A stretch of 64,000 nucleotides of DNA from Candidatus Gottesmanbacteria bacterium GW2011_GWA2_43_14. Its GTDB lineage: Bacteria > Patescibacteriota > Microgenomatia > 2-02-FULL-39-11. How positions within the stretch are numbered: position 1 is the stretch's first letter; each line of letters opens with the position of its first letter. The translations under genes were made by a program, and so were the position numbers. Location: contig LCFP01000007.1 of NCBI GenBank assembly GCA_000999095.1, positions 5,013-69,012 of the forward strand, in the 5' to 3' direction. Below are positions 1 through 31,464 of the stretch, in pieces. The notes below the pieces were generated by a model. The model worked only from the letters and a program-made list of their open reading frames with translations. It was not told the origin of the DNA and ran no database searches.

Positions 1-1755
1 TCCTTCCGACTGCTGGTCCAGCCTGAGTCAGGCTGGTTGAATTCCACCTGCCGGTATTCATAAAAGATTGATCCTACTTTAGTCCGGCCGACCTTAAGAC
101 CTGCTCCGTCAATTCTGACTTTCCAGCTATTTCCGTCAGCCTCAGGATAAGCATATGTCAATGACCCGCCGATTGTCAGAGTATATTCACGGCTTTCATC
201 CCCGTAGACGAACAAGGTTGGGGAGGAACCGGTTAATCTTAACGGGCAAAAATTAAAATCTTCCCATTCTTCCCGCAGCATTTTTAATTCCCTGACTTCA
301 TCCTGGCTGCCTTTTTCATCAATTACCAAAGAGTCAAATTCAGCTATGACTGCGTTTATCTCAGGCAGCGGCTCAACTGTTGCCGGGATCAGGAACCAGT
401 TGTTGGCGCGTTTTTGGTTCTGATTGTTGATGGTAAATTTTCCCACGTCGCCATAGCCGCTTAAAGTTATGATAGGCGCCAGCTGGCTTTCCGACGGGAC
501 ACATGGTGAAGCATTGGTGACGGTTCCTGCCTGGTCGGGATTAAAAGTGCCCAGTTTCAACGATTCATCATCCAGGGCAGGTGCCTCAGTAACCCCGGCT
601 ACCTCACCGGCAAAAACCTGGCGGTTATTAAGCGCCGGTACAGCCATAATAAAGGTTGTGTTGAATCCGCTTTTAGTCACAGCGTTGCCTTTTAGAACAT
701 ACATCGGCTCTATCATTTTATTGCTTGCCGGATTTTCCAGGTAAGTCAGGATATAATCAGTTACCTCAGCCCGGAGGTTGTCTGCCCTGTTTTCCGGAAA
801 TATCTCCTCCCAGGCGATGTTTTCCGTGTTATCAGGTACAATTATAGACAGGTTGGCCATCCCGGAAGTCATTTGCAGGTAAGCTTCATCGGGATTTATC
901 AGATTTTCCGCTCCATAACTCAATTCCGAATCTATTAATTTAAGATTGGAGGTGATTCTCATACCTTGTCCTCCACCCAGTGCCACGGTGACTGTATTGA
1001 AATCATCAGGTCTCATTCTGCCGTCTTCTCCTGTTGAGGTGTTGACGATTTCCGGCTGTTCCGGTGTCAGGCTGTCAGTCATCCCGGGTTGAAGCTGATT
1101 CAATCTGGTTTCATTGGAAACATTAAGAAGACCTGAAAAATTTAATATCGGCAATCCGGCTTTGACAAAATCGCGATGGCATTCCACAAATATATATCCG
1201 TTTATATCATTTCTGGAGTAGGTGACAGGGCATTCTACTGTTTCATCAATCAAACCTAAGTCAAGCAGGTAGTTTCTGACAAACTCTTTTTCAGAGCCGG
1301 CGCCTCCCGGCAGCGAATAATCACGGTAGGAAACCAGTTCATAATTGCCGCTGTTAGTTTGGAATTTCAGGTAACCTGCGTTTTCAGGATCTTCCGTATT
1401 ATAGAAAATCACCGTATTGCCCTCGCTTTTGTTCTGGTTCAGGTCGAATTTCTGGGCAACAGATGCTAGGTAAGGAATGGAGTAATTTGTTCTGAAATTA
1501 TAGACTTTCACACTGTTAGGAACTGCCGTTCCGCTGTAATTGCCGCTGAGTTCACTGAAAGTCATCACCGGAGATGTCAAACGGGTCTGCTGCCTGCTTG
1601 CTGTGTCCGATTCAGAATCCGTGAATAATTGCTCTGTCATGATGTCGGCGGGGTTTTGTTTCTGTTTAAAGAGGGAGAAAAGGAGAGCGACCAGAAGAAT
1701 TAGTACCAGTGAGAGCAGGATGTATAACTTTTTTTTGGGCAGCTTATCCATCATA
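1..1755 (-). CDS. Large exported or membrane-anchored hypothetical protein. The start is at 1755/1752 (MMDKLPKKKLYILLSLVLILLVALL...) and the 3' end runs past the window edge.
   Basis: Hand translation of the minus strand gives an open frame of more than 580 codons. The N-terminal KKK plus hydrophobic segment is a signal anchor. The ORF track omits it because no stop lies in the window. It abuts the downstream cluster genes. Confidence 0.55.
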
Positions 1756-1815: not shown

Positions 1816-4269
1816 TCAATAGTCAGTCAATAAATTCGGGTCAACCGTTATTTGGCTTCCTTCCTTCAGCTTGCCGTCCAGAAGCCTCTTGGCGATATAG
1901 TCTTCCAGAGTTGTTTCAATCGTCCTGCGCATAGCGCGGGCTCCGAATTCCCGGGAATTGCCTGTTGAAGCCAGGTAGTTGACCAGCTCGTCGCTGGGGT
2001 TGACCCGGATGGCTTTTTGGGCAATTCTGGAGTTTAAATTTTCAAGCATCAGTCTGGCTACCTGCCTCAGATGTCCCTGGGACAGAGGCGTAAAAACCAC
2101 AGTCCCGTCAAAACGATTGAGAAATTCAGGGGAAAATATTTTTTCTCTCAAGACGTGATCAACAATTTGATCCTGCAGTTTTTGCGGACTTGCTTCTGCG
2201 GCGACCTGTTCCCGGATATATTCCGATCCGGCATTTGATGTGGCGATGATAATTGTCTGCCGGCAGTCAATTTTTTTGCCGGAGGCATCATGCAGATAAC
2301 CTTCGTCCAGAAGCGTTAAAAAAAGATGCTGGATTTCTTTGGGGGCTTTTTCAATTTCATCGAAAAGAAGCAGGCTGAAGGGGTTAACGCTCAATTTTGT
2401 AGTCAGCTCCCCGGCTTTTTGACCGGCGCTTGAACCTATCAGCCTGGCCATGCCTTCTTCGCCCTGGTACTGGCTCATGTCAAAACGCAGCATTTTATCT
2501 TCCCCTCCGTAATAGACGGAACTTAGGGCTTTAGCCGTTTCCGTCTTGCCGACTCCGGTCGGTCCCAGGAAAAGGAAGGAGCCGATGGGTTTCTCCGAGG
2601 AAGAGACATTCATTCTGGCTCTTCTTAAAGCGGAGGCGATCATCCTGATGGCCATTTGCTGGTTGATTATCCGGCGGTGCAGGTAGTCTTCCAGATTAGC
2701 CAGTTTTTCCTTTTCACCTTCAAGAAGTTTGCCTATGGGAATCTTCAGTTTCTCTGTCAGGTATTTATCGATATCATCGCTGCGGATAAATTTATTACGG
2801 TTAGAGGCGATAATGGCATTCTCCAGCAGTTCTATCGCTTTACCGGGAAAAGGCGTTGCTGTCAGATAACGGTCGGCATCCTCAACGGTTTTTTTAACGG
2901 CCGCAAGCGAAATGACAGTGTTATATCTTCGTTCCAGGACCGGCACAATGGATATTTCCAGTTCCGTGATGACGGTTTTTAAATCAGGGGCCAATAGGAA
3001 AATTTCCTCAAACAGGCCTCCCAGGAGGCTATTTTTTTCGAGGAATTGATGATAATCGTCAGGCGTCGTCAAACCGATTAACCCAATTGAGCTTCTGGCA
3101 AATTTCTCGATGACATCCGTCAGATTTAGCCTGCCTTCGCCTTCGGAGGCATACTTGTCGAAGTCGTCGATAAACAGGATGATATTGCCGGCTTTCTCGG
3201 ATTCCTCATATATTTGCGAAAAAACGGCTTTTATTTCCTGGAGGTTCTTTTTATCCGAGCAAAGTGCGTGCATATCAACTTTCATGATTCTCTTGTGGGA
3301 CAGTTCTTTTTCACTCATGCCAAGGTACAGGTGGCGGGCCAGAGTTTCAACCAGCATATGTCTGGCTATACCGGGAACGCCAATCAGCATGACATTTTTA
3401 TTTTCGCTTTTAAGCAAAGCCCTTTCCATTTTTTTTATTTCCGCATCCCGTCCTAAAAGGAAGGGGAATGGTGTCGGTTCGGCAGTTAAATCATGGGCAT
3501 ATTTATCCAACTCAACTGTATAACCGTACGACCAGTCAATGCCTATCCCCGGCAGGGCGCGTATTCTCTTCTTGTCTTCGAGCAGGGGCCGCAGAGTCAA
3601 TGATTCGAGGCGGCGGTACCAGTTCAGACAGGTGAAGAAATCATCTTTGCTGATTTTATTGGCTGAAATTTCCGGTAAAAAGGAAAGGTTTTCATAAATT
3701 TGATTATAGAGGTTTTCTGCATTATCCGGAGTTGTCATAGGCAAAATGGAGAAAGGAGGCAGTTTGGCGATGATGCTCCCAGGGTCCAGTCCAAGTCTTA
3801 TCAAGCAAAAACGGCCGGTTTGCGACAGGCAGAATTTTTTGAGGTATTGACCGTTTCCCAAGGCTTGCATGATTTCAGCAGTCTCCTCGTTGAAATTTTT
3901 TTTTCTTGAAACGTAAAAAGGCAGGGAAACAAAGGGCAGCAAGAGCCAGCCGATTAAAACCGGTAGGTAAAGAAAAGGCAAAAGCAGCATCATGGTCAGG
4001 CCGGTAAAAATTGCCGTCAGCCGCAGGAAAAAACCCATAAATCTTGACGTCAGATTGAATCCAACGACAGAGGCGTAATTCGACAGCTGGAAACCCCGGC
4101 CTTTAACAGCCCGGATGCGTTTCCAGGGCGCCAACAGGTTGGGCAGATGGTGGGGAATTCCCGAAAAATAGTAGGAAAATAAAACCAGATTGAAGAAATG
4201 GTCCGTGAGGCGGGGCCAAATCCGGGAATAATGCCAGTTGAGAAAGTCTTCCAGATTATTCATTTTCAA
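1816..4269 (-). CDS. Membrane-anchored ClpA/ClpB-like double AAA+ ATPase (817 aa). The first ATPase domain (NBD1) is degenerate and the second (NBD2) is intact.
   Basis: The N-terminal ~270 aa contain several hydrophobic helices (e.g. FFLRLTAIFTGLTMMLLLPFLYLPVLIGWLLLPFVSLPFYV). D1 aligns to ClpB D1, but its Walker A reads GVPGIARH where ClpB has GEPGVGKT, and its Walker B reads ILFIDDFD. D2 is canonical: FLFLGPTGVGKTE, LLFDEIEKA, TSNAGS, and the C-terminal GARAMRRTIE small domain. Confidence 0.8.
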   Translation of the reverse strand: MKMNNLEDFLNWHYSRIWPRLTDHFFNLVLFSYYFSGIPHHLPNLLAPWKRIRAVKGRGFQLSNYASVVGFNLTSRFMGFFLRLTAIFTGLTMMLLLPFLYLPVLIGWLLLPFVSLPFYVSRKKNFNEETAEIMQALGNGQYLKKFCLSQTGRFCLIRLGLDPGSIIAKLPPFSILPMTTPDNAENLYNQIYENLSFLPEISANKISKDDFFTCLNWYRRLESLTLRPLLEDKKRIRALPGIGIDWSYGYTVELDKYAHDLTAEPTPFPFLLGRDAEIKKMERALLKSENKNVMLIGVPGIARHMLVETLARHLYLGMSEKELSHKRIMKVDMHALCSDKKNLQEIKAVFSQIYEESEKAGNIILFIDDFDKYASEGEGRLNLTDVIEKFARSSIGLIGLTTPDDYHQFLEKNSLLGGLFEEIFLLAPDLKTVITELEISIVPVLERRYNTVISLAAVKKTVEDADRYLTATPFPGKAIELLENAIIASNRNKFIRSDDIDKYLTEKLKIPIGKLLEGEKEKLANLEDYLHRRIINQQMAIRMIASALRRARMNVSSSEKPIGSFLFLGPTGVGKTETAKALSSVYYGGEDKMLRFDMSQYQGEEGMARLIGSSAGQKAGELTTKLSVNPFSLLLFDEIEKAPKEIQHLFLTLLDEGYLHDASGKKIDCRQTIIIATSNAGSEYIREQVAAEASPQKLQDQIVDHVLREKIFSPEFLNRFDGTVVFTPLSQGHLRQVARLMLENLNSRIAQKAIRVNPSDELVNYLASTGNSREFGARAMRRTIETTLEDYIAKRLLDGKLKEGSQITVDPNLLTDY

Positions 4270-5189
4270 TAAAAATTACACTTTTCTTTTCTCGGATCGC
4301 AGATGGTTTTTTGTAACCCGGGCACGCGTACCAGATTTGAAATATAGTTAACAAGATTATTGTAACCGATAAGTCCCTTGAAAAAATCTTCTGTCATTTT
4401 GACGAAGGACGTATTGTTTGAGGCAGCATGGGAAAGGACGCATGACAGGTTGAAAACCGGTTCTCCGAAAACGGTTTTGTTGGGGTATTCACAACCGACG
4501 CTTTGCCTCATGCCTGGATTAACCGTCAGACAGCGGTTCAGGCAGAAGCGGTATGTTCCATTATCATTTGAGCGGCATTCAGCATTGTTTTCCATCATAA
4601 AACAATGGGTATATCCCTGAGGACCGGTAAACGTCCCGCTTTCGCAGAGGTCCCGGCAGCCGCCCGGCCCGTTAAGCGGCAAACTGCCGCATAATCCCTG
4701 ACCGCCGCCGATATTGCACCAGCATGAAGGGACTCCGGCTGTATACAGAATGCCGCATCCCCGGGGATTGGTTTTTTTGGTTACCGGTGCCGGCGGAGTT
4801 GGTGTGCGTGTCGCCGGACCGGGTGGCCGGGTCGGGAAAGTACAGGCAAAATCCGGTGACAAATTGCAGGCACCGTTGCGAAGTGCATTGCAGTCCGCTG
4901 TTGCCTGGGGGCTTAAACCGCCGTTGCAGTAATGGTTGATTATTTGCGTGTCTGAACACAAGTTGTGCTTGTAACTGTTGTAGATTGGGCGCAAATCAGT
5001 CCTGTATCGTAGAAGACAATCAACGCATTTGGCAGGAAACTGGGGATTTTGAAAATCAAGGTTACAGTTTTTGTCCGAACCCATAGGAACAGCCGGATAG
5101 GTCGGCAGCGGCGTTTGGGCAGAAGCCTGTTTTGCCGCTAAAATTACGGCTGAGACAAAAATGGAAAAAATAATTTTTATTTTGATCAC
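4266..5189 (-). CDS. Secreted Cys-rich protein (307 aa) with a Pro-rich linker and the conserved C-terminal tag ...VRVPGLQKTICDPRKEKC.
   Basis: It has a Sec signal peptide (MIKIKIIFSIFVSAVILAAKQASAQ), more than 25 Cys, and a PTRPPGPATRTPTPPAP linker. The C-terminal motif is shared with the two upstream paralogs. It overlaps its neighbours by 4 bp. Confidence 0.7.
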   Translation of the reverse strand: MIKIKIIFSIFVSAVILAAKQASAQTPLPTYPAVPMGSDKNCNLDFQNPQFPAKCVDCLLRYRTDLRPIYNSYKHNLCSDTQIINHYCNGGLSPQATADCNALRNGACNLSPDFACTFPTRPPGPATRTPTPPAPVTKKTNPRGCGILYTAGVPSCWCNIGGGQGLCGSLPLNGPGGCRDLCESGTFTGPQGYTHCFMMENNAECRSNDNGTYRFCLNRCLTVNPGMRQSVGCEYPNKTVFGEPVFNLSCVLSHAASNNTSFVKMTEDFFKGLIGYNNLVNYISNLVRVPGLQKTICDPRKEKCNFY

Positions 5190-5191
5190 TC

Positions 5192-6949
5192 TCAGGGAAT
5201 TGCACAGCCGTTAGTGACCTTCGGATCACAGGTGGCTTTTTGCAGTCCGGGTACGCGCTGAATTTGTTCGATTAACAGACTTAATTCAATGGCATCGATG
5301 GTGCCCTGTCGATACTGGTCAATATAGCTGCTGATGACTTCATTGGTTGATTGGCTGACGGAAGCGGTTCCCAGAGGATCAGGAAATTCAGCCGTAATAT
5401 CGACCTTAGCCGGCGGATTTACCTGGCAGACACTGGCCTGGCAGGAAGCCATATAATCAATATTTTCTATGACGACTCCCGCAGGTCCGTAAGCTTTGAC
5501 ATAGACGTCATATTTCCTGTCCGGAAAAAGATTGTTAAAGCGGTAGGGGAAAACTACCCCGCTTTGGATGCCTGCTTTGGGAATTTCTATTTTCCGTAAA
5601 TAGTTATCTCTGACATCATTGATCCAGACATAAACAGAATCAAATTGCGCTTTACTGGTAAAGTTCAGGATGACTTCCCCCGAGATTTCGGAATTAGGAG
5701 GCGTGCCGTAGCGGCACTCATACAAAATGTCAAAAGTATTTGGTGGGGAATAAGGCGAGGTGACATCGACACAGGCCTGGCTGTCATATCTCCAGTATGA
5801 GGCTATCTGGCGGTTGATTGGCTGTCCGGCTACCCGGAAACAGTGGCCGCTTCCGTCGGTTGAGCATTGTCCCTGGGGGTTGATACCGTCGACCGAAAAA
5901 GCCCTTTGGTCAGGATTTAAATTATTGCAGCTGACGTCCGTAAAATAAGAGATGTAGTTGGTATGGTTGCAGATTTCACCGTCGGGAGAATACCAGGCAG
6001 GTTTGGGAAGTGCAATCGGTGTTGCGCCGGGCGGAGGGGTAGAGCTTGGGGTTGGAGTATTTGCGGGTCTGTCAATGGTAAAGCTGACAACACAGGCCGG
6101 CTGCGGCGATGAGAATCCGGTATCATCAAGAATAAAATAACCGTTGACCTGGACTTTTAGAGGAAGTTTGTTCCCCCAGAGTTCATCGGGACGGTTCAGG
6201 TCATCGTAATAAACGGTAAATGTATGGCTGGTTGAGCCTGATTTAGGCACGATGACATTATAATGCTGGCCGCCGAAAATAATGGGTTTGGGGTTGCCGG
6301 GACCGTAGAGATTGTCCCTGTTATAAAAGAAAAGCTGGTAGTTGGTGATGGCGGTCCCTGCCGGGGGCAGACCGCTGATAGTGATTTGCAGGGATTGGCT
6401 GGGACTGAGGATGCCGCCTGAGATTGATGAACTCTGACAGACCGCGGGGCGGTATTCTTCCGTTTCTAAAAAACAGGCACTGTTGGTAGGCGACCAGCTG
6501 CCGCTGTCCTGGGCCATATAAGGCACGATTTGCACTCTTTTCAGTTTGCTTCCTAGAGGCAGATTCTGCTTCAGGTCGGTAATAAAAAGCTCAGCCGCGG
6601 AAACGGTTCTGGTACCCGTAGTTCTTTGGGTAGTGGTGGGATCTTTAAATATCAGCGGATACTGTCCGGCCGGACAATCAGTCGTCGGGATAACCACATC
6701 TCCGCCGACATTGGTACAGACCACCTGGCCGAGCGTCGGATCACCGGGTTCTTTAAAATCAAGATTACGGATCAGAAAATAAAAATTATTGACAGGGATG
6801 TCTGATGTGGACTTAAATGTTACGGTTTCATTGACTTTGAGGACAGCTTTGTCGATAGTTGCTCCCGTACAGGATTGGGCATATGTTTTTCCGGGCAAAA
6901 GATACAGAAAGAAGATACCCAGAAAAAGAACTGATAATATAGTTTTCAT
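5192..6949 (-). CDS. Secreted large protein (585 aa), paralog of the C-terminal part of the 7447-9750 product, ending ...IQRVPGLQKATCDPKVTNGCAIP.
   Basis: The signal peptide is MKTILSVLFLGIFFLYLLPGKTYAQ. Two internal regions align to the 767-aa neighbour (IDKAVLKVNETVTF.../IDKATIGPGESFTV... and ...YDVYVKAYGPAG.../...YELYVKAYDRQG...). A PTPSSTPPPGATP linker is present. Confidence 0.7.
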   Translation of the reverse strand: MKTILSVLFLGIFFLYLLPGKTYAQSCTGATIDKAVLKVNETVTFKSTSDIPVNNFYFLIRNLDFKEPGDPTLGQVVCTNVGGDVVIPTTDCPAGQYPLIFKDPTTTQRTTGTRTVSAAELFITDLKQNLPLGSKLKRVQIVPYMAQDSGSWSPTNSACFLETEEYRPAVCQSSSISGGILSPSQSLQITISGLPPAGTAITNYQLFFYNRDNLYGPGNPKPIIFGGQHYNVIVPKSGSTSHTFTVYYDDLNRPDELWGNKLPLKVQVNGYFILDDTGFSSPQPACVVSFTIDRPANTPTPSSTPPPGATPIALPKPAWYSPDGEICNHTNYISYFTDVSCNNLNPDQRAFSVDGINPQGQCSTDGSGHCFRVAGQPINRQIASYWRYDSQACVDVTSPYSPPNTFDILYECRYGTPPNSEISGEVILNFTSKAQFDSVYVWINDVRDNYLRKIEIPKAGIQSGVVFPYRFNNLFPDRKYDVYVKAYGPAGVVIENIDYMASCQASVCQVNPPAKVDITAEFPDPLGTASVSQSTNEVISSYIDQYRQGTIDAIELSLLIEQIQRVPGLQKATCDPKVTNGCAIP

Positions 6950-6952
6950 ATA

Positions 6953-7450
6953 TTATGGACTGATATCAATTTTGATTTCATGATTGCCGCTGATGAGATT
7001 TTTGCCCTGGGACATCAGCCGGCTTTGCTTTGAATCAAGAGAGATTATGGTAGGTCCGGTATTTTTTTTGGTGATAAAGCGGATAGTCACTGCAGGATTT
7101 TTTTCAGCCGCAAGTGCCGTTAAATGGAAAAGCCCCCGTATTCTTTCGGTTTTCACATCTCCCCAGAGGGACGGACTAGGGTCTACCTTTTCAACATCCA
7201 GATACTTAGGATCATAGGCAAGCCACAAATCAATCTCCTGTATCGGCTTCCGGCTTTCAAATGAGATACTCATTGGAAAAGTGGATTGAGTTTTGACTAT
7301 TTTTGCCGGTGTTTCTATCTTAATTTTTACTCCTATTGGAAGGATCAGCCGGATCGCGGCCAGGAATATAAAGACAGCCACGGCTGCCGTGAGATAGTAA
7401 ATGCGCCGGTTGTTTTTTTTATGGCGGATATTCCGGTTCTTTTTTTTCAT
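6953..7450 (-). CDS. Membrane-anchored cohesin-like domain protein (165 aa).
   Basis: A basic N-terminus is followed by one TM segment (YYLTAAVAVFIFLAAIRLIL). The extracytoplasmic domain carries an AYDPKYLDVEKV motif resembling the cohesin YDP-x-xL-x-V signature. It is a paralog of 10024-10575. Confidence 0.55.
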   Translation of the reverse strand: MKKKNRNIRHKKNNRRIYYLTAAVAVFIFLAAIRLILPIGVKIKIETPAKIVKTQSTFPMSISFESRKPIQEIDLWLAYDPKYLDVEKVDPSPSLWGDVKTERIRGLFHLTALAAEKNPAVTIRFITKKNTGPTIISLDSKQSRLMSQGKNLISGNHEIKIDISP

Positions 7451-9985
7451 GGGAGGTCACATCCTCCGGGAATTTTGGGATCACAAGTGGCTTTCTGCAG
7501 GCCCGGCACTCTTGTTATGCGGTGGATGAAGCGCGAAATTTCCAACGGGTCTGCCTGGTTATTGATCCATCTGTTGATCATGTCGTTAAAACGCTGGTTA
7601 ATTTGAGCGGGAGAGGCGTCAACCAGAGGATCGGGAAAAACCAATTTGAAATTGATGACCCCGTCAGGCATGCTTTGGCAGCTGTAACTGCCGCAGGAAC
7701 CTTCATTTATGACGCCGATATAATCAATGGCAGTACCCTGTCGGTCATAAGCTTTGACATAGAGCTCATACGTCTTGTCGTAGAAGAGGGGGGAAAAATT
7801 AAATCGGAATTTGGAATTGTTTTTAACATCTTCAGCTTTTTGTTCATGGAATGTCAGGTAGTTTTCGGCAGAGATGTCATGGAGGTAGACGATAATATTG
7901 CGGAACGGTTTGGCTCCCTCAAAGCTGACGCTGACTTCTCCCGTTATCCTGCCTTTGGGTTCGCTGGTGAAAGAACAGGTGAATAAGCGGTCAAAAATCG
8001 TAGCAGGAATGTCATCCCTGTCTGTAATCGGGGTGCAATCTTCAGAGCCCGAACGTATCAGATATTTCGGCGTGATTGCTTCATTGACGATGACACCGCC
8101 GGCTTTGTAGCAAAAACCTGTGCCGTCTTCATTGCAGCCGGTTTCTTCTTCACGATCGGATAAAGTGTCGCCTGACAGGTATCCTACCGGACTCAGGCAA
8201 AGTGAATCGTTATAGAGTTTGATAAAGTTCTTGTCTGTGCATTTTAGTCCGTCGGGAGCATACCATTCCAATGGATCGTTCGGATTGCCGACGCAGGTGG
8301 TTCCGTTCCAGCAGGCATTAGGGCCGCAATCACAGCCTGAGGTTAGAGCTTGGGTGCAGTTAATTTTAGGGTCTCCCGCCAGTTCACAACTGTCCACACA
8401 ACCGTTGGGGAAGACTTCCCATTTAAATCCCTGGTTTTCGCAGGCAAATTTTTCCGCATCGCTGCAGACAAGCTGGCATTCATTCTCGATGCATTTCGTT
8501 GAGCAATTTCCTCCAATTCCCGAACAAAAATCAGGGTCTTCGCACTGACCGGCAAGAAACTCTTTATTTTCGACGGTGCATTTACCGGTTTCTTTATCCA
8601 GGGCGCAGCCGCAGTCGAAATCAGTCTGGCAGAACAATTTTTCGGAAGCGGGGGTAGGTGTAATGGTGATATCGGGTTCGGGTGTGGGAACATCATCAGT
8701 TACCGATGACGAAACATGTCCGACACAGCCGATTTCAGCTACGGACAGCTGGCCGCCCGGACTCTGGAAAAAATAAGCATTGATCTGAATTTTTTGAACC
8801 GGCAAATTGCCGTTTCTGGCGTCAAGTTTGCCGAATATTTCCTCGTAGGAAATTGTTCTGCTGCCTGTTGTCCGCATCCCGGCCCAGTCAGGATCCTCGA
8901 ATATCAAATGGTGAGTGCCGGTAGGACAGTTGCCGACGATGCCGGTTACATCGCCGCCCTCGGCCACGCAGACCGATTTGGGATTTCCCGGACCGAAGAG
9001 ATTGTCCATGTTATAGAATTGGTACCAAAAACGGTTGATGGGAGTTTTGGAAAATGAGGTTACCGTAAAAGATTCTCCCGGACCGATGGTAGCCTTGTCT
9101 ATGGAGATACCCTGGCAGAGGTTTGGCCTGTCGGGACCGAGTGCCGATACAGGGGTTGCCGATGGTGCCGGTACTCCCGGATCGCCCGGGTCTTTACCCT
9201 GGCATACACAAATCGGCAAACCGTCCGATCCTTCGCCATCGGCCACACAAGTCCCGCCCGTGCCGCAGCTGGTTCCCTCGTCGTGGTTTTTGCAGTTGTT
9301 GTTCGATTCGGCTGAACAGGAGGTGCCTCCGCCCGGATAGCCGGGATCGCCTGGATCTCCGGGACCGCCGGGACCGCCGGGGTCACCCGGACCTGTAGAA
9401 GGCGCAGTGCAATTGCATATCGGATTCCCGCTGGTATCATTTGATCCGGTTATATTGCAGTTTTTGTCCGTAGCGCAGGCAAAGCCGAGATTTTTGCTTT
9501 TACAGACAGTTTCCGATGAAAGTGAAGAGCATTTCTGTTCACAGCAGGTGGATTGGATTCCGCAGTCTTTGACTCCTACGCTGTAATAGTTAGTATCGCA
9601 GGGAAGTTCCGCCAAAGGTGAACAGTATCCCTGGCAAAGCGGAGCTGTTGGGCAATTATCAGCAATATCGCCGCATTTTAAAATAGAGCCTACATAGCCG
9701 CATTTTCCAGGACAGTTTAAATCGGTTGTGCATGTCTGACCGGCGGACAATATCGCCGCATTTTAAAATAGAGCCTACATAGCCGCATTTTCCAGGACAG
9801 TTTAAATCGGTTGTGCATGTCTGACCGGCGGATGTACAAGAAGTTGAGGTCGCGGCCTGCTTTTGGGGGTTTTGGGGCTCAAGTGCGAGGCGGACAGCGG
9901 CGGCGACACCGACGACCATCGTCACCAGAAGCACCAATTCAATACCGGCAAACCCGGCCTGGCGGAATCTTCTAAATATTTTCAT
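7447..9985 (-). pseudogene. Giant type IV pilin-headed Cys-rich adhesin-like gene, about 830 aa if contiguous. An 85-bp tandem duplication splits it into ORFs 9659-9985 and 7447-9750.
   Basis: The N-terminus MKIFRRFRQAGFAGIELVLLVTMVVGVAAAV is a class III prepilin signal (G|F..E5). The 28-aa segment SAGQTCTTDLNCPGKCGYVGSILKCGDI is encoded twice, by the two repeat copies. The body has EGF-like Cys repeats, a collagen-like GPGDPGGPGGPGDPGDPGYPGGG run, and the C-terminal tag ...ITRVPGLQKATCDPKIPGGCDLP. Confidence 0.6.
9662..9831. repeat. Perfect tandem duplication of 2 x 85 bp (9662-9746 and 9747-9831).
   Basis: I checked base by base that the two 85-bp copies are identical. Because 85 is not a multiple of 3, the duplication shifts the reading frame of the pilin-like gene. 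Confidence 0.9.
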
Positions 9986-10023: not shown

Positions 10024-10575
10024 CTAAAGAATATTCACGTCCAACTGGTCAATTCGTTTCGGATCGAGAATATTGATGCCGTTGGTGGCCACGATCGTTT
10101 TTGTCCGGTCAAAGTTAATTTCGGTTTTGCCTTTATTTTCGGTGGCCTGGAATACGATTTCAGCTACGGTTTCTTTGCCCTTTGGCAATATAATTTCTTT
10201 GCCGTCAAAGGTGGCCACTCCGGAAACCTTCACATAGCCGCTGCCGCTGACGTTGATAGGGTAATTGGCGAAAAAATTACCGGTTGAAACTGAAGTGACT
10301 TTCAGGTATTTCGGGTCGAATGCCACTACAAAGTCAGCCGCGGCCACTTCGGTTTTACCGGAATCAAGAATCAAGGTAACTTTGAAATCTTCCCCGGCCG
10401 GGATCCGGCTGTTTTCGGCAAGGAGATCCAGTTTGGCTTCCTGTTTGATTTCACCTTCCTTCGGCGCTCTTTTTTGCTGGATGATATAAGCAGCCAGAAG
10501 GCCGATTATAAAAAAAAGTGTAAGGATGAATAATTTGCTGGCAGATTTTCCGGTTGAAACTGGTTTTTCCTCCAT
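10024..10575 (-). CDS. Membrane-anchored cohesin-like domain protein (183 aa), paralog of 6953-7450.
   Basis: It has an N-terminal TM segment (LFILTLFFIIGLLAAYII) and an FVVAFDPKYLKVTSV motif. It is the first gene of the minus-strand cluster. Confidence 0.55.
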   Translation of the reverse strand: MEEKPVSTGKSASKLFILTLFFIIGLLAAYIIQQKRAPKEGEIKQEAKLDLLAENSRIPAGEDFKVTLILDSGKTEVAAADFVVAFDPKYLKVTSVSTGNFFANYPINVSGSGYVKVSGVATFDGKEIILPKGKETVAEIVFQATENKGKTEINFDRTKTIVATNGINILDPKRIDQLDVNIL

Positions 10576-27365: not shown

Positions 27366-27400
27366 AACCTGGGAGGTAGCGCAGATACGCAACCTAGGGG
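27366..27400 (+). repeat. REP-like palindromic element, copy 1.
   Basis: AACCTGGGAGGTAGCGCAGATACGCAACCTAGGGG, located between the convergent genes tsf and the TraD-like gene. Confidence 0.7.
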
Positions 27401-29604
27401 GTAGTGACCATTTTTTCATCCTTACTTTTGGCCTTTTTGGTGTAGCGTTCTTTGGAAAGGCGCATCACTTTTTCCCTGTTCTGGTTAATGGATTTGGGCA
27501 AAGGCAAAGTGACGGCATGGAAGGGCAGGGATGTCAGGTTGTCGATGGCCAGCTTGATTATTATCTGGAAAGTGCCCAGGTTGACCAAATCTTCTTCTTT
27601 GTACCACTGGCCGAATTCCCTGGCCAGGTGGTGCGCATCCTGGGCGCCGATGATAAAGGAGATCAGTGTGCCGGCATTGCCGAAAATTGCCTTCTGGACG
27701 TCTTCCTCGACCTGGCCGACATACTGGTTGGCTAAAACGAGATTGAGCCGGTATTTCCGCGCCTCTGACAGGATTTTTATAAATGAGGTTGTAGCAAAAT
27801 TCTGGAACTCGTCGACATACATATAGAAATCCTTGCGTTCAGCTTCGGGCACATTGACCCGGTTCATGGCTGCCAGCTGGATTTTGGTGATGAACATGGC
27901 GCCGAGAAGTGCGGCATTGTCCTCTCCCAGTTTTCCCTGGGACAGATTGAGGATCAGTATTTTCCGGTTGTTCATGATGTCTTCCAGGTCGATGGTTGAG
28001 GTCGGATGCTCGAGGATCTGCCTGATTGTCGGCGACATGACAAACTGGCCGACTTTGTTCTGGATGGGGGCGATGGCCTCGCTTTTCAGGCGGGGATGCA
28101 TTTTGTCGTATTCATTCCTCCAGAAATTCTGCAGTATTTTGTCCTGGACTTTATTAAGGACCCGGGCGCGGAAATTCGCATCGGCCAGAAGGTCCGGCAC
28201 CATGACCAGAGTGGAATTGGGGTATTCCAGAAGAGTCAAAATGACGTTTCTCAGGATATATTCAAGCCTCGGCCCCCAGGAATAGGAATAGAGTTTGGAA
28301 AAAATGGAGACAATCCCGGAAGATATAAGTTCTTTATGCACGGGATTTTTAACTTCCAGGGGATTCATCCAGAAAGGCTGTTCCTGGTCATAAGGCTCGA
28401 GGTAGACCACATCATTCAGGCGGTAGGAAGGTACATAATCCAGTAAAATTTCCGACAGGTCCCCGTGCGGATCGATGACGCAGACTCCTTCCCGGTTGCG
28501 CATGTCATTGATGGCCATGTTGGCGATCAAAGTTGATTTGCCTGTGCCGGTTTTTCCGATTATATACATGTGTTTCCGGCGGTCATACTTTTTGACGCCG
28601 AAAGTGGTCAGGGTGTTTTTGTACTCGGCTTTGGCAAAAAAATTAATTTCCTGCTTTTCCTCATCGGACAGGTCGGTGGCGACAGGCAGATTGGGCGGCG
28701 GCTCGCCGGCCAATGATCTGCCCCAGGAAATATTTTTGATGCCGGCCAGAAGAATGGTAGGCGGGTGCCAAAGGGTAGCCAGCTCCATAGTATTTAAAAT
28801 CTGGTGGCGGGGAAAATGGCTTTTCTCCCTTTTTAATATTTTTTGGTAGGTTATATCCTTGAAAAACCAGCGTGGGCGCTTGAGAATAAAGCGGTTGCCT
28901 TCCCCCAGGGCAAAGGCGCCGAAAGCCCCGGCCAGATTGTACATCTGGGCATAAGCCTGTTGTCGGGTGGGGGCTCCGATCAGTATCCTGATATAAGTGC
29001 GGTAGCCGGTATGGTTGACTTTTTCTTCGATCAGTCGGGCCAGCGGAAACGGCCGGGTTTTGTCGGGCGCCCGGGGGCTCGGATCAGGCATGCCTTTTTG
29101 CAGCATCGATGCCACCATCCTCTGCCAGTTGAAATGCGGCGGTTCGATAACGATCTGGATCAGCCCCGATTCATCTTTGGAAAATTTGGAAAAGACGCCG
29201 ATTATGGAAGAGAGGGGATCGAGCTCCTTGAAATCTTTATAGGTGCGGATCGGGTAATAGAAATAGCTGGCAAGCATCAGATTGCCGATGGCCAGATACT
29301 TGCTTTTGATGATGTTTGACAGATAATCGGGTACTTTGCTGATGAGGATTTTGGGATACTGGCTGGTTATCTGGCTTTCCAGAAAAGTCTGGAATGACTT
29401 CGGTATGACGGAATAAAAATGAACACTTTGATTATAGGAAGCAATTTCAAAAGAGAGAGTCCTGACTTTTATCCAGAGCCTTTTCCAGTGGGGGATATGC
29501 CCGCCCGGAAAAAGTGAGGAAAAGACCTGGGTCATCATCTCCGGAGACTCTTCGCCTGTTTTGGATGATTTAATTTCCAGGACGACTTTAGATTCGGCTG
29601 CCAT
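27394..29604 (-). CDS. TraD/VirD4/HerA-FtsK-superfamily P-loop ATPase (about 736 aa).
   Basis: Walker A GKTGTGKST, Walker B FYMYVDEFQNF, and ARKYRLNLVLANQ. The start is taken at the ATG at 29604 (MAAESK...), because the longer ORF overlaps the divergent gene's promoter. Confidence 0.55.
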   Translation of the reverse strand: MAAESKVVLEIKSSKTGEESPEMMTQVFSSLFPGGHIPHWKRLWIKVRTLSFEIASYNQSVHFYSVIPKSFQTFLESQITSQYPKILISKVPDYLSNIIKSKYLAIGNLMLASYFYYPIRTYKDFKELDPLSSIIGVFSKFSKDESGLIQIVIEPPHFNWQRMVASMLQKGMPDPSPRAPDKTRPFPLARLIEEKVNHTGYRTYIRILIGAPTRQQAYAQMYNLAGAFGAFALGEGNRFILKRPRWFFKDITYQKILKREKSHFPRHQILNTMELATLWHPPTILLAGIKNISWGRSLAGEPPPNLPVATDLSDEEKQEINFFAKAEYKNTLTTFGVKKYDRRKHMYIIGKTGTGKSTLIANMAINDMRNREGVCVIDPHGDLSEILLDYVPSYRLNDVVYLEPYDQEQPFWMNPLEVKNPVHKELISSGIVSIFSKLYSYSWGPRLEYILRNVILTLLEYPNSTLVMVPDLLADANFRARVLNKVQDKILQNFWRNEYDKMHPRLKSEAIAPIQNKVGQFVMSPTIRQILEHPTSTIDLEDIMNNRKILILNLSQGKLGEDNAALLGAMFITKIQLAAMNRVNVPEAERKDFYMYVDEFQNFATTSFIKILSEARKYRLNLVLANQYVGQVEEDVQKAIFGNAGTLISFIIGAQDAHHLAREFGQWYKEEDLVNLGTFQIIIKLAIDNLTSLPFHAVTLPLPKSINQNREKVMRLSKERYTKKAKSKDEKMVTTP

Positions 29605-29673
29605 GTGGTTTAAGTATAGATTTTCCCTGTGCAAATTAAAAGTTGTATAATCACGCGAATCCGAAGGTCTTAT

Positions 29674-31464
29674 ATGGAAAATGAAGCCAGGAATCAATTG
29701 ATATTAAAACTAAGCCATAATTTTGAATTTGCCACTGCCAGTCTAGATCAATTTTATACAGACTTTTTGGAAAATAATTTGGAGATAAAAGACAAAGTAG
29801 ATACTTTTGCAAAAAGAGTAAATGCTTTATATGGCGGGCAGGAAGCAAGCTATATCGAACACGCATTGAAATTGGCAGTTATAAGTTATCAGTATAATTG
29901 GGATTCTTTAAAACATTACCGAAAATCTCCAACACCGGAAGGGAAAAAAGTTCCAACGCTTTTCCATTCATTGGAAATGGCAGACAAACTGCTTGACGGG
30001 GACGGCCGTGATGATAAGCCCTTCCGCTGGGAAGCTGTAGCCGCCATTTTAATGCATGATATTCCTGAGGATGTGGAAATGGTATTTGTAGAAAACGGGG
30101 GTGAATTTCAGGTAAAAGGAGAAAAATGGTTCGATTTAATTCGTGATTCTTTTGAAACGACCGGTAAAGCTGATTTAATAGTTGATCTGATAAAAGGGGT
30201 AACAGAGAGAAAAATTCCTGATAGGTATAGCGAAGAAGGGAGGGATATCAGAGAAAAAATAAAGGCAACATCAATTTTTAAGATGATTAAAGCCTATGTT
30301 GTTAACGGTCGGATAAAAGGCAGAAAAGTCTTAATGGATGTTCCGGACGTAGAATTAGAGTCGGTTTATGAGGTTGTCTTTAACTTGAATCATTTATTTG
30401 ACAGCGCACTGAGGTCTCCGGAACATCTTCAAATACTGTTATTAAAGATTACGGACATCTGGCATAACTTTCAGACACCGGATTGGGTAAAATCTTCCAA
30501 AGTACTGCGGGGCCGTCTGGCCGCTAGTTTAGCAGAATGGTTTGGTTGGTATTCTATGAGATCAGATTTAGTTACCTTATTAGGTAATGTTGCTGATACT
30601 ACCACGGCATATGCGCCGGAATTGGAATATGAGTTACTTCCCCATAGTGAATTAATGGATAAAATGCTTAAGATGGAGGAATTTGGAAATCAGTTTATTG
30701 AAACACTTAAGAAAAAAGGCATTATACCCGGGACAGCAGAATTTATTTCATCAATAGGTTTTCCGGTCGTAAACAGTGAATATGAATTGGGGAAATTTGA
30801 CGGATCAACCCTGCCAAAACCAGAATTTATAGTATCTTTTGAAAACGAGGCTTTTACGATTTTAGAGGGCGACATAAAGCAAAACTATACCACTATAAGG
30901 TTATTATTACAGAATCAGGAGGTTGCTGCAGGTGAGTCTATAGCCGGTTTAAAAATAAAAAATTACCAGGACAGCATATATTACAGAAAACTAATGGGAC
31001 GATATAGAATTGACGGAGTTTTAAAATTAGGAAACAATGAAGGATTTTTATTTAGAATGGAGAGCAATGAGCCTTATATGACTGATTACTTTAAGGAAAG
31101 ATCGGATGTAAATTATACGGAAATACCCGAATATAAGGGGTTATTTCATAATAAACTCAGGGATAAAGAAGGATGGAGGATTCATTTAAATGCACTAATA
31201 GGTTTTTTCTACGAACCAAATATGCCTTCTTCTCTGTCCAGATTGATATCTCCAGTATTTTACGACGGTTCACTTTATTTTGTTGATGGGGAGCAGACAT
31301 TTTCAGAATTAAAAGATCTATTAAATTTAAAAGCGGATATTTTGATTGATAATCCCGTAAGTTATAAAAATAAAAGAATCACCGGTAAAACTAAAGTTCG
31401 TGATTTATTTCCATCTGCAGCCAGATCTCACGTTATCAAGAGGAGAATGATTACCGTTCAATAA
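29674..31464 (+). CDS. HD-domain protein with a RelA/SpoT-type hydrolase fold and a ~350-aa unknown C-terminal region.
   Basis: YIEHALKLAVISY, AAILMHDIPEDV and KITDIWHNFQT align to SpoT HD motifs (PYITHPVAVA, ALLHDVIEDT, KLADRTHNMRT). The -10 box TGTATAAT at 29645 supports the start at 29674. Confidence 0.5.
   Translation: MENEARNQLILKLSHNFEFATASLDQFYTDFLENNLEIKDKVDTFAKRVNALYGGQEASYIEHALKLAVISYQYNWDSLKHYRKSPTPEGKKVPTLFHSLEMADKLLDGDGRDDKPFRWEAVAAILMHDIPEDVEMVFVENGGEFQVKGEKWFDLIRDSFETTGKADLIVDLIKGVTERKIPDRYSEEGRDIREKIKATSIFKMIKAYVVNGRIKGRKVLMDVPDVELESVYEVVFNLNHLFDSALRSPEHLQILLLKITDIWHNFQTPDWVKSSKVLRGRLAASLAEWFGWYSMRSDLVTLLGNVADTTTAYAPELEYELLPHSELMDKMLKMEEFGNQFIETLKKKGIIPGTAEFISSIGFPVVNSEYELGKFDGSTLPKPEFIVSFENEAFTILEGDIKQNYTTIRLLLQNQEVAAGESIAGLKIKNYQDSIYYRKLMGRYRIDGVLKLGNNEGFLFRMESNEPYMTDYFKERSDVNYTEIPEYKGLFHNKLRDKEGWRIHLNALIGFFYEPNMPSSLSRLISPVFYDGSLYFVDGEQTFSELKDLLNLKADILIDNPVSYKNKRITGKTKVRDLFPSAARSHVIKRRMITVQ

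Follow-up and report, generated by a model that had tools for sequence, protein, structure and literature searches.

A split gene of Candidatus Gottesmanbacteria bacterium GW2011_GWA2_43_14 encodes a candidate disulfide-rich surface protein beside membrane-anchored cohesins

The stretch of DNA analyzed here (the window; 64,000 nucleotides of contig LCFP01000007.1) belongs to Candidatus Gottesmanbacteria bacterium GW2011_GWA2_43_14, an uncultivated bacterium from groundwater, and carries on its minus strand at 7447..9985 a gene that is broken in the public record and that we read as encoding one intact, exported, disulfide-rich multi-domain protein of the cell surface, set in an operon with cohesins. 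To this reading as a whole we assign a probability of roughly 45%, while it is highly probable that the product is an extracytoplasmic surface protein. The N-terminal segment would carry the protein across the membrane and hold it there with the N-terminus inside, and the minimal prepilin-like triad within this segment may be cut by prepilin peptidase. The ectodomain, composed of Cys-knot-like modules, a Gly/Pro linker and immunoglobulin (Ig)-like and CnaB-like sandwiches, would extend outwards from the cell and serve in binding or as a stalk. A tag at the C-terminus would dock onto the neighboring membrane-anchored cohesins, and the three proteins of the operon that bear this tag could then form a cohesin-organized surface complex. 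As its hydrophobic helix stands alone and no pilin domain is predicted to follow, we do not think that the protein is a structural pilus subunit.

Is the gene intact? The preliminary description of this DNA had taken 7447-9985 as one gene of about 830 aa, but in the window this interval is not a single open reading frame (ORF). It starts with a minus-strand ATG at 9985, which opens the N-terminal peptide MKIFRRFRQAGFAGIELVLLVTMVV (MKIFRRFRQAGFAGIELVLLVTMVVGVAAAVRLALEPQNPQKQAATSTSC...), and comprises 2539 nt, one more than a multiple of three, so that two ORFs are found instead, 9659..9985 (108 aa, KKS97570.1) and 7447..9750 (767 aa; 722 aa in the GenBank annotation, KKS97569.1). The frameshift results from an exact 85-bp tandem duplication, across which the peptide SAGQTCTTDLNCPGKCGYVGSILKCGDI is encoded by both ORFs in different frames, and deletion of one 85-bp copy yields an uninterrupted ORF of 817 aa. 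The ENA copy of the scaffold (locus L004) has a run of 100 N exactly at the site of the duplication, and the sequence flanking this gap (...CGDIADNCPSA|CTSAGQTC...) implies that the true repeat period is 85 + 26 = 111 nt, that is 37 codons and in frame. The junction in the window reads GATATTG|TCCGCC, and its counterpart at a period of 111 nt reads ...GATATTG|CTGATAATTGCCCATCAGCTTGTACA|TCCGCC.... This 111-nt junction was found in the independent assemblies L008, L011 and L014 and the 85-bp junction of the window in none of the 22 loci compared; JGI metagenome contigs contained neither. Moreover, four independent assemblies of the same organism (L010, L011, L014 and L023), matched by flanking genes that encode identical proteins, all read through in frame, and on one of them, the 70,677-bp contig L023, the 817-aa product (P0153) is identical to the reconstructed protein. 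The true gene is intact and encodes 817 aa plus 37 aa for each added repeat copy. Its interruption in the window is an artifact of assembly or gap closing, a mis-closed scaffold gap within a genuine 111-nt in-frame repeat. That the locus might be no real gene at all, rather an assembly chimera or a frameshifted pseudogene, could be argued from the frame being broken in both the window and the GenBank record. This is extremely improbable given the intact ORF on L023 and the three other assemblies in frame, a junction that is unique to this record at a place where the sister record is gapped, and orthologs that share head plus body. Hence the contiguity of the gene that the preliminary description assumed is borne out, and the chimera that it considered is ruled out by the joint occurrence of head and body in independent assemblies and in orthologs. 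Owing to the mis-closed gap GenBank splits the gene into two 'hypothetical proteins', and automated surveys therefore miss its full architecture.

The 37-aa repeat unit is present once in L010 and in L023, twice in L011 and at least three times in L014, since both copies visible there end in CPSA; several further contigs terminate within the repeat. As the assemblies used k = 127-141 against a period of 111 nt, different copy numbers probably exist in the population, and the occurrence of one, two or at least three copies across samples and assemblies suggests that an exposed module truly varies in number. In-frame variable repeats are typical of exposed surface proteins, and by analogy the repeat may be linked to such a function here as well. 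A second spot of the gene prone to mis-assembly or variation (9330..9393 and 9099..9440) contains a 9-nt Gly/Pro microsatellite; in one JGI assembly (protein P0154, 616 aa) a deletion or frameshift between the two GP tracts joins the main ORF to an alternative frame.

All 56 Cys residues of the protein lie behind the transmembrane (TM) segment. They form four CxC and six CxxxC motifs and no CxxC motif, and the six-Cys modules have the spacing C-x6-C-x5-C-x3-C-x8-C-x6-C, or end in CxC, which differs from the spacing of EGF domains; no EGF-family Pfam match was obtained at E<=10. Of the terms with which these repeats had originally been described, 'CxxC-rich' thus does not apply and 'EGF-like' is unsupported. 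The 'collagen-like run' of the same description does exist as a Gly/Pro tract, but it consists of only seven triplets, has no Collagen (PF01391) match in Pfam at E<=10 and its periodicity is not conserved. Since orthologs carry non-periodic poly-Gly/Pro at this position, we consider the tract a linker. The relative P0076 combines a true Collagen Pfam repeat (E=9e-8) with the Ig-like domain and a true Dockerin_1, indicating that true collagen-like linkers occur in the family and not in the protein studied here. The most widely shared and family-defining unit, in a family that comprises at least 200 representative clusters, is the Ig-like β-sandwich, which AlphaFold2 (AF2) models with a predicted local distance difference test score (pLDDT) of 94.6 and a predicted template modeling score (pTM) of 0.88, and for which Foldseek returned generic β-sandwich matches only (F-spondin reeler domain, TM-score 0.44-0.49; antibody V domains). 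Further towards the C-terminus Cys-rich modules stand in the place of the second Ig-like domain of orthologs and paralogs, and are also found in P0004 and P0005. The AF2 model of the C-terminal 278 residues (alignment A4) contains an ill-defined Cys region, a sandwich with pLDDT values of 85-96, a helix-loop-helix and a disordered PGLQKATCDP... tail. In Foldseek this sandwich was best matched by the stalks of pilins and adhesins from Gram-positive bacteria (Spy0128, PitA, Cpa, FctB), with E ~1e-4 and low TM-scores of 0.2-0.28. The protein contains no enzymatic Pfam domain, a phmmer search with its full sequence against PDB sequences returned noise only (E>=0.39), neither it nor the four flanking proteins matched NCBIfam, and its C-terminus (...KIPGGCDLP) has neither an LPXTG motif nor a TM tail. 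By its appearance the body would suit binding or a function as stalk, and 'adhesin' is a reasonable inference; the role as tip pilin or host-attachment adhesin in the preliminary description is likewise inferred. An MdbA-like disulfide oxidoreductase is enriched in the Candidate Phyla Radiation (CPR) (PMC6744442).

How is such a protein exported and anchored? When 1.84 billion representative proteins were searched with a profile, 203 relatives were found, and seven full-length or near-full-length orthologs combine head and large body (P0002, P0003, P0007, P0008, P0027, P0036 and P0009). The head of the protein, RQAG|FAGIELVLLVTMVVGVAAAV, has the class III triad of G-1, F+1 and E+5, followed by about 20 hydrophobic residues. 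Head-body fusion and triad are conserved in the orthologs at about 35% identity, with the leader Gly kept in P0002 (SGFAALELV), P0003 (AGFAGIELV), P0007 (TGLAVIELI, with Leu at +1), P0008 (AGFAGIELI) and P0027 (LGFAGLELI), and the Glu retained in the N-truncated P0036. In all ortholog heads about 15 hydrophobic residues lead to K/R and then to QN(L/P)QKQAAT. Among about 150 N-termini of the family a regular expression for the triad matched only these orthologs and canonical pilins, and the only true gene start that it matched in the window is that of the gene in question; the conservation of a Glu within the membrane helix is beyond chance expectation. A scan of 185,579 GTDB species genomes with the degenerate-codon head gave one true match, the ortholog of Gottesmanbacteria RIFCSPLOWO2_01_FULL_42_22 in the same synteny, and one match in Emticicia aquatica (Bacteroidota) that we take as chance, so the head in this exact form is not a widely used signal. 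A homolog search with the 54-aa head found no candidates although P0003 shares long exact words with it, probably because of an index limitation. A Tat signal was considered for RRFRQ and rejected, as the RR is not kept in orthologs.

It could be imagined that the protein is a type IV pilin of the minor or tip kind, unusually large and modular, that is cut after G11 and methylated at F12, with its helix in the pilus core and its body acting as host-cell adhesin. The conserved triad with its hydrophobic helix would be consistent with such a role, as would G15 and A17-A18, which echo G14 and A17-A18 of the canonical PAK PilA. The canonical pilin P0110 with its GFTLIE head has the same Ig-like domain. 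In addition, type IV pili and PilD-bearing machinery are widespread in CPR (PMC6744442), and the number of known modular pilins exceeds 1,200, one of 860 aa from CPR among them (PMC8179133). However, neither N_methyl (PF07963) nor NCBIfam TIGR02532 matched the full protein, its 43-aa head or four orthologs at thresholds of E<=1 to E<=10, while P0110 (MRAGFTLIEAMV...) as positive control scored 30.5 bits with N_methyl in the same run (E=2.4e-7). Similarly, in a home-built hidden Markov model (HMM) of canonical pilins, which is based on 13 N-termini and serves as a lead and not as a curated test, heads of this type reached 0.3-0.8 bits, as do generic anchors, and canonical heads 17-20 bits. Moreover, the helix is about 24 residues long and ends at residue 35, followed by EPQNPQKQ and the six-Cys modules, and as the Pro/Gln motif directly ends the helix, the protein is predicted to lack α1C and a globular pilin domain, in contrast to all modular pilins that have been characterized structurally. 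The ortholog P0009 has the head NSGQIILKL (G|QIILK), with K at +5 and neither F+1 nor E+5. Finally, T2SSE, T2SSF and Peptidase_A24, and the pilB/C/D/M-O families altogether, were found neither along the 70.8-kb scaffold nor in L003, L019, L020 and L022, the loci of orthologs; the conserved linkage is to cohesins. A modular pilin is therefore unlikely, and polymerization of the protein into a type IV pilus is, if anything, slightly more doubtful. Of the 'textbook prepilin (class III) signal' in the preliminary description the triad and the hydrophobic run stand, and with the triad kept in five full-length orthologs and its Glu in a sixth the head is not a generic anchor whose homologs lack the pattern; the word 'textbook' falls with the profiles, the home-built HMM and the missing α1C, and the pil genes that the pilus role called for are absent from the scaffold and these loci.

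Alternatively, the head may be an ordinary Sec signal that is either cut by signal peptidase I (VGVAAA|VR, leaving V32 as first residue of the mature protein VRLALEPQNPQK) or remains as uncleaved type II anchor, the triad being lineage-specific and unrelated to pili, and the protein being held at the surface by tag and cohesins or by the N-terminal anchor. From its sequence the head may equally be read in this way: G at about -5 and AAA or AAS right before K/R are found in every ortholog (VGVAAA|VR, AGIAAS|TK), the paralogs in the same operon carry plain Sec signals, an N-terminal TM anchor with a Q-rich motif but no triad is common among the relatives, and the tests with pilin-head profiles are negative. 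On the other hand, a conserved Glu in the hydrophobic stretch and K/R at +1/+2 are atypical of Sec signals, about 24 hydrophobic residues in a row are rather many for a signal that is cleaved off, and the conservation of the triad is left unexplained. We regard an ordinary Sec signal as a real possibility with the odds clearly against it. Its features, the head of P0009 and the profile results burden our own proposal of a surface protein with a prepilin-like head as well, and for processing by prepilin peptidase the chances seem to us not quite even.

A Q-rich juxtamembrane motif ending in Ala follows the N-terminal TM segment in P0018, P0034, P0039, P0075, P0108, P0130 and other relatives (e.g., QQQQDIREKAAT, TQRQEVRQKAAT and SQQRQEIRQRA; QNPQKQAAT in the protein studied here). 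It is not an AXA site and may be an undescribed processing or sorting motif of CPR. At the opposite end, P0031, P0033, P0047, P0075, P0079, P0109 and P0137 terminate in (S/T)PT(I/L)xGxGxG and a hydrophobic tail ...SLALAL, which by its sequence resembles a C-terminal sorting signal of the exosortase/archaeosortase type. The canonical pilin P0110 (293 aa, locus L021 158..1039) adjoins a Hint-domain protein, and no pil genes were found around it in L021.

How could the protein be connected to its neighbors? As had been noticed early on, its C-terminal tag (RVPGLQK[AT][TI]CDP...) is shared by the 585-aa and 307-aa proteins encoded downstream. The tag sits where relatives of the family carry Dockerin_1: among 152 family proteins the C-terminal module is a two-F-hand dockerin in about 30 and the tag in 18, and the dockerin tails of P0076 and P0037 pass Pfam Dockerin_1. 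This equivalence of position, together with the conserved synteny, suggests that the tag may dock onto the neighboring cohesins, to which we give somewhat less than an even chance. Several observations speak against such docking. At E<=10 none of four tags was matched by Dockerin_1, in contrast to the tail of a dockerin used as control, the tag is without the Ca-binding Asp/Asn ligands of DxNxDG, and the alignment of tag profile and dockerin profile by hhalign reached a probability of 9.7% over 21 columns. Furthermore, an N-terminal anchor combined with a C-terminal dock would tether the protein at both ends, which is unusual. The tag as a degenerate dockerin is unsupported by the Pfam and hhalign results, and the comparison is kept as a positional analogy only. 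The tag profile (A2) gave no match at E<=0.01 among 5.8 billion proteins, the profile being too short.

The gene is the second of an operon that encodes a TM cohesin, the protein itself, a second cohesin-like anchor and two Sec-exported proteins (Table 1). The upstream cohesin gene is separated from it by 38 nt and the gene for the second anchor overlaps it by 4 nt; the positional equivalent of this anchor in L022 is Pfam Cohesin-positive. Overlaps or gaps of 2-4 nt connect all genes from the central one through that of a ClpB-like AAA+ protein, which shares 4 nt with the tag gene of the 307-aa protein, and these distances, together with the 38-nt gap to the upstream cohesin gene, argue for a single operon. 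The ClpB-like gene is possibly part of it, and its product may be the dedicated ATPase of the surface system. It is followed by a gene for a protein of about 685 aa of no assigned family (1..1754, minus strand), which is cut by the edge of the window; in L020, too, these two genes come after the tag genes. A scan of the operon for promoters and terminators found nothing exceeding shuffled expectation. In six organisms (L001, L003, L019/L025, L020 and L022) a cohesin gene lies directly upstream of the ortholog, and in these loci the order DCD gene, cohesin, giant protein, optional second cohesin, protein of about 590 aa and protein of about 300 aa recurs; the downstream partners there, among them those in L001, L019, L020 and L022, all bear the tag. 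Proteins of the P0007 type are annotated in several further Gottesmanbacteria genomes, and the distribution is, as far as seen, limited to a subclade of Gottesmanbacteria. Elsewhere in the window, among housekeeping genes, a coupling-type ATPase similar to TrwB/TraG (DUF87, TrwB_AAD_bind) is encoded at 27394..29697 on the minus strand, which is perhaps a part of the type IV secretion system of monoderm type that has been reported for Patescibacteria.

Table 1. Features of the operon and of its central gene (positions in the window).
Feature	Position	Strand	Evidence
183-aa protein, N-terminal TM anchor and cohesin domain	10024..10575	(-)	Pfam Cohesin E=3.4e-10, 40.7 bits, cut-off 24.1
Basic leader MKIFRRFRQAG, final Gly would-be -1 of class III signal	9953..9985	(-)	sequence
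Hydrophobic helix FAGIELVLLVTMVVGVAAAVRLAL; F+1, E+5, 15-residue core between E and R	9881..9952	(-)	sequence
Pro/Gln-rich juxtamembrane motif EPQNPQKQAATSTS; conserved core QN(P/L)QKQAAT	9839..9880	(-)	alignment, orthologs
85-bp x 2.0 tandem duplication, 100% identity, frame-breaking	9663..9832		Tandem Repeats Finder
Intact 37-aa six-Cys module CTSAGQTCTTDLNCPGKCGYVGSILKCGDIADNCPTA, the repeat unit	9643..9753	(-)	assemblies with 1, 2 and at least 3 copies
Two six-Cys modules (ending ...PICxC) flanking Gly/Pro linker	9202..9507	(-)	sequence, alignment
Gly/Pro tract GPGDPGGPGGPGDPGDPGYPGGG, seven G-X-Y triplets, 9-nt microsatellite	9325..9393	(-)	sequence, Tandem Repeats Finder
Ig-like β-sandwich, signature FYNxDNL(F/Y)GPGNPK	8713..9117	(-)	profile search; AF2
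Cys-rich modules (CQTDFDCGCALD...CIENEC and onward)	8290..8631	(-)	alignment A1
WYAPDG Cys-containing region, then CnaB/prealbumin-like β-sandwich (residues ~650-756)	7633..8265	(-)	AF2
C-terminal tag: helix-loop-helix (AQINQRFNDMINRWINN-QADP-LEISRFIHRI) and RVPGLQKATCDPKIPGGCDLP	7450..7608	(-)	alignment, AF2
165-aa TM-anchored diverged cohesin-like protein	6953..7450	(-)	Pfam Cohesin E=0.16; BLASTP against 183-aa cohesin E=1e-4
585-aa paralog, Sec signal, tag-ended	5192..6949	(-)	sequence, alignment
307-aa Cys-rich paralog/partner, Sec signal, tag-ended	4266..5189	(-)	sequence, alignment
ClpB-like double-AAA+ protein, hydrophobic N-terminal region	1816..4269	(-)	conserved after tag genes in L020

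Bacteria of the CPR are believed to spend their lives attached to other cells, and few of the molecules that make this contact are known. The locus offers a concrete and conserved candidate, namely a large surface protein that is rich in disulfides and has a variable repeat, encoded together with anchored cohesins and tag-bearing partners. If the tag binds the cohesins, this would be a dockerin-independent surface display by cohesins in a streamlined genome, and if the G|FxxxE head is cut by prepilin peptidase, the spectrum of bacterial class III substrates other than pilins would be wider. It could even be envisaged that the locus encodes an undescribed surface-assembly system, in which single-cohesin anchors capture a tag without calcium loops (a helix-loop-helix and the disulfide loop PGLQKATCDPKxPGGC), a prepilin signal consisting of α1N only lets prepilin peptidase or the type IV pilus machinery process or present a disulfide-rich, repeat-variable adhesin of about 820-890 aa, and the translationally coupled, membrane-bound ClpB-like AAA+ protein acts as assembly or extraction motor, albeit so far-reaching a proposal is quite improbable.

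Which known systems does the protein resemble? The Pam pili of CPR (bioRxiv 10.64898/2026.03.03.709456) are likewise restricted to CPR, occur in Microgenomatia, contain Ig-like domains and paired Cys and form extracellular host-contact structures. A link to them was dropped, as they have Sec signals, donor-strand exchange and dedicated chaperone-like genes, and the paper makes no mention of cohesin, dockerin or prepilin. Modular type IV pilins such as PilB and PilC of Streptococcus sanguinis share the hydrophobic segment with G|F-x3-E, the large non-pilin modules and a presumed ligand-binding body outside a monoderm cell, in CPR with up to 860 aa (Raynaud et al. 2021, PMC8179133). Yet they match IPR012902/N_methyl and have a complete small pilin module, consisting of a long α1 and a β-sheet, in front of the graft, whereas the protein described here has neither; instead a Pro/Gln linker follows after about 24 hydrophobic residues, and its gene is linked to cohesin and not to pil genes. 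Large-bodied pilins are thus already known, also from CPR, and this protein fails to group with them. Gram-positive MSCRAMM and sortase-pilus adhesins (Spy0128, Cpa, PitA, FctB) are similar in the weakly matching CnaB-type sandwich, the beads-on-a-string arrangement and the in-frame variable repeat, but the protein of Gottesmanbacteria carries no LPXTG and is apparently stabilized by disulfides.

Two further systems come closer in their presumed mode of action. The substrates of the Sulfolobus bindosome, sugar-binding proteins with a class III signal, are also large non-pilin surface proteins with a prepilin-type signal, which serves their insertion into the membrane or their processing although they are no classical filament subunits (PMC3047682). 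They differ in being archaeal, in their dedicated Bas assembly system and in their solute-binding passengers, while no Bas-like and no pilus ATPase or platform genes lie near the gene studied here. Cohesin-dockerin assemblies, cellulosomal and non-cellulosomal, on the other hand correspond in that a TM-anchored, Pfam-positive cohesin is encoded beside secreted proteins with a common C-terminal module, and relatives of the family do end in Dockerin_1. Here, however, the tag is not recognizably a dockerin, comprising a single helix-loop-helix without DxNxDG loops and a PGLQKATCDPKxPGGC tail, domains of carbohydrate-active enzymes are missing, and anchors with one cohesin apiece stand in place of a multi-cohesin scaffoldin. 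By analogy, the protein would work most like a non-filament surface protein with a class III signal, combined with a cohesin display in which a new tag has taken the place of the dockerin.

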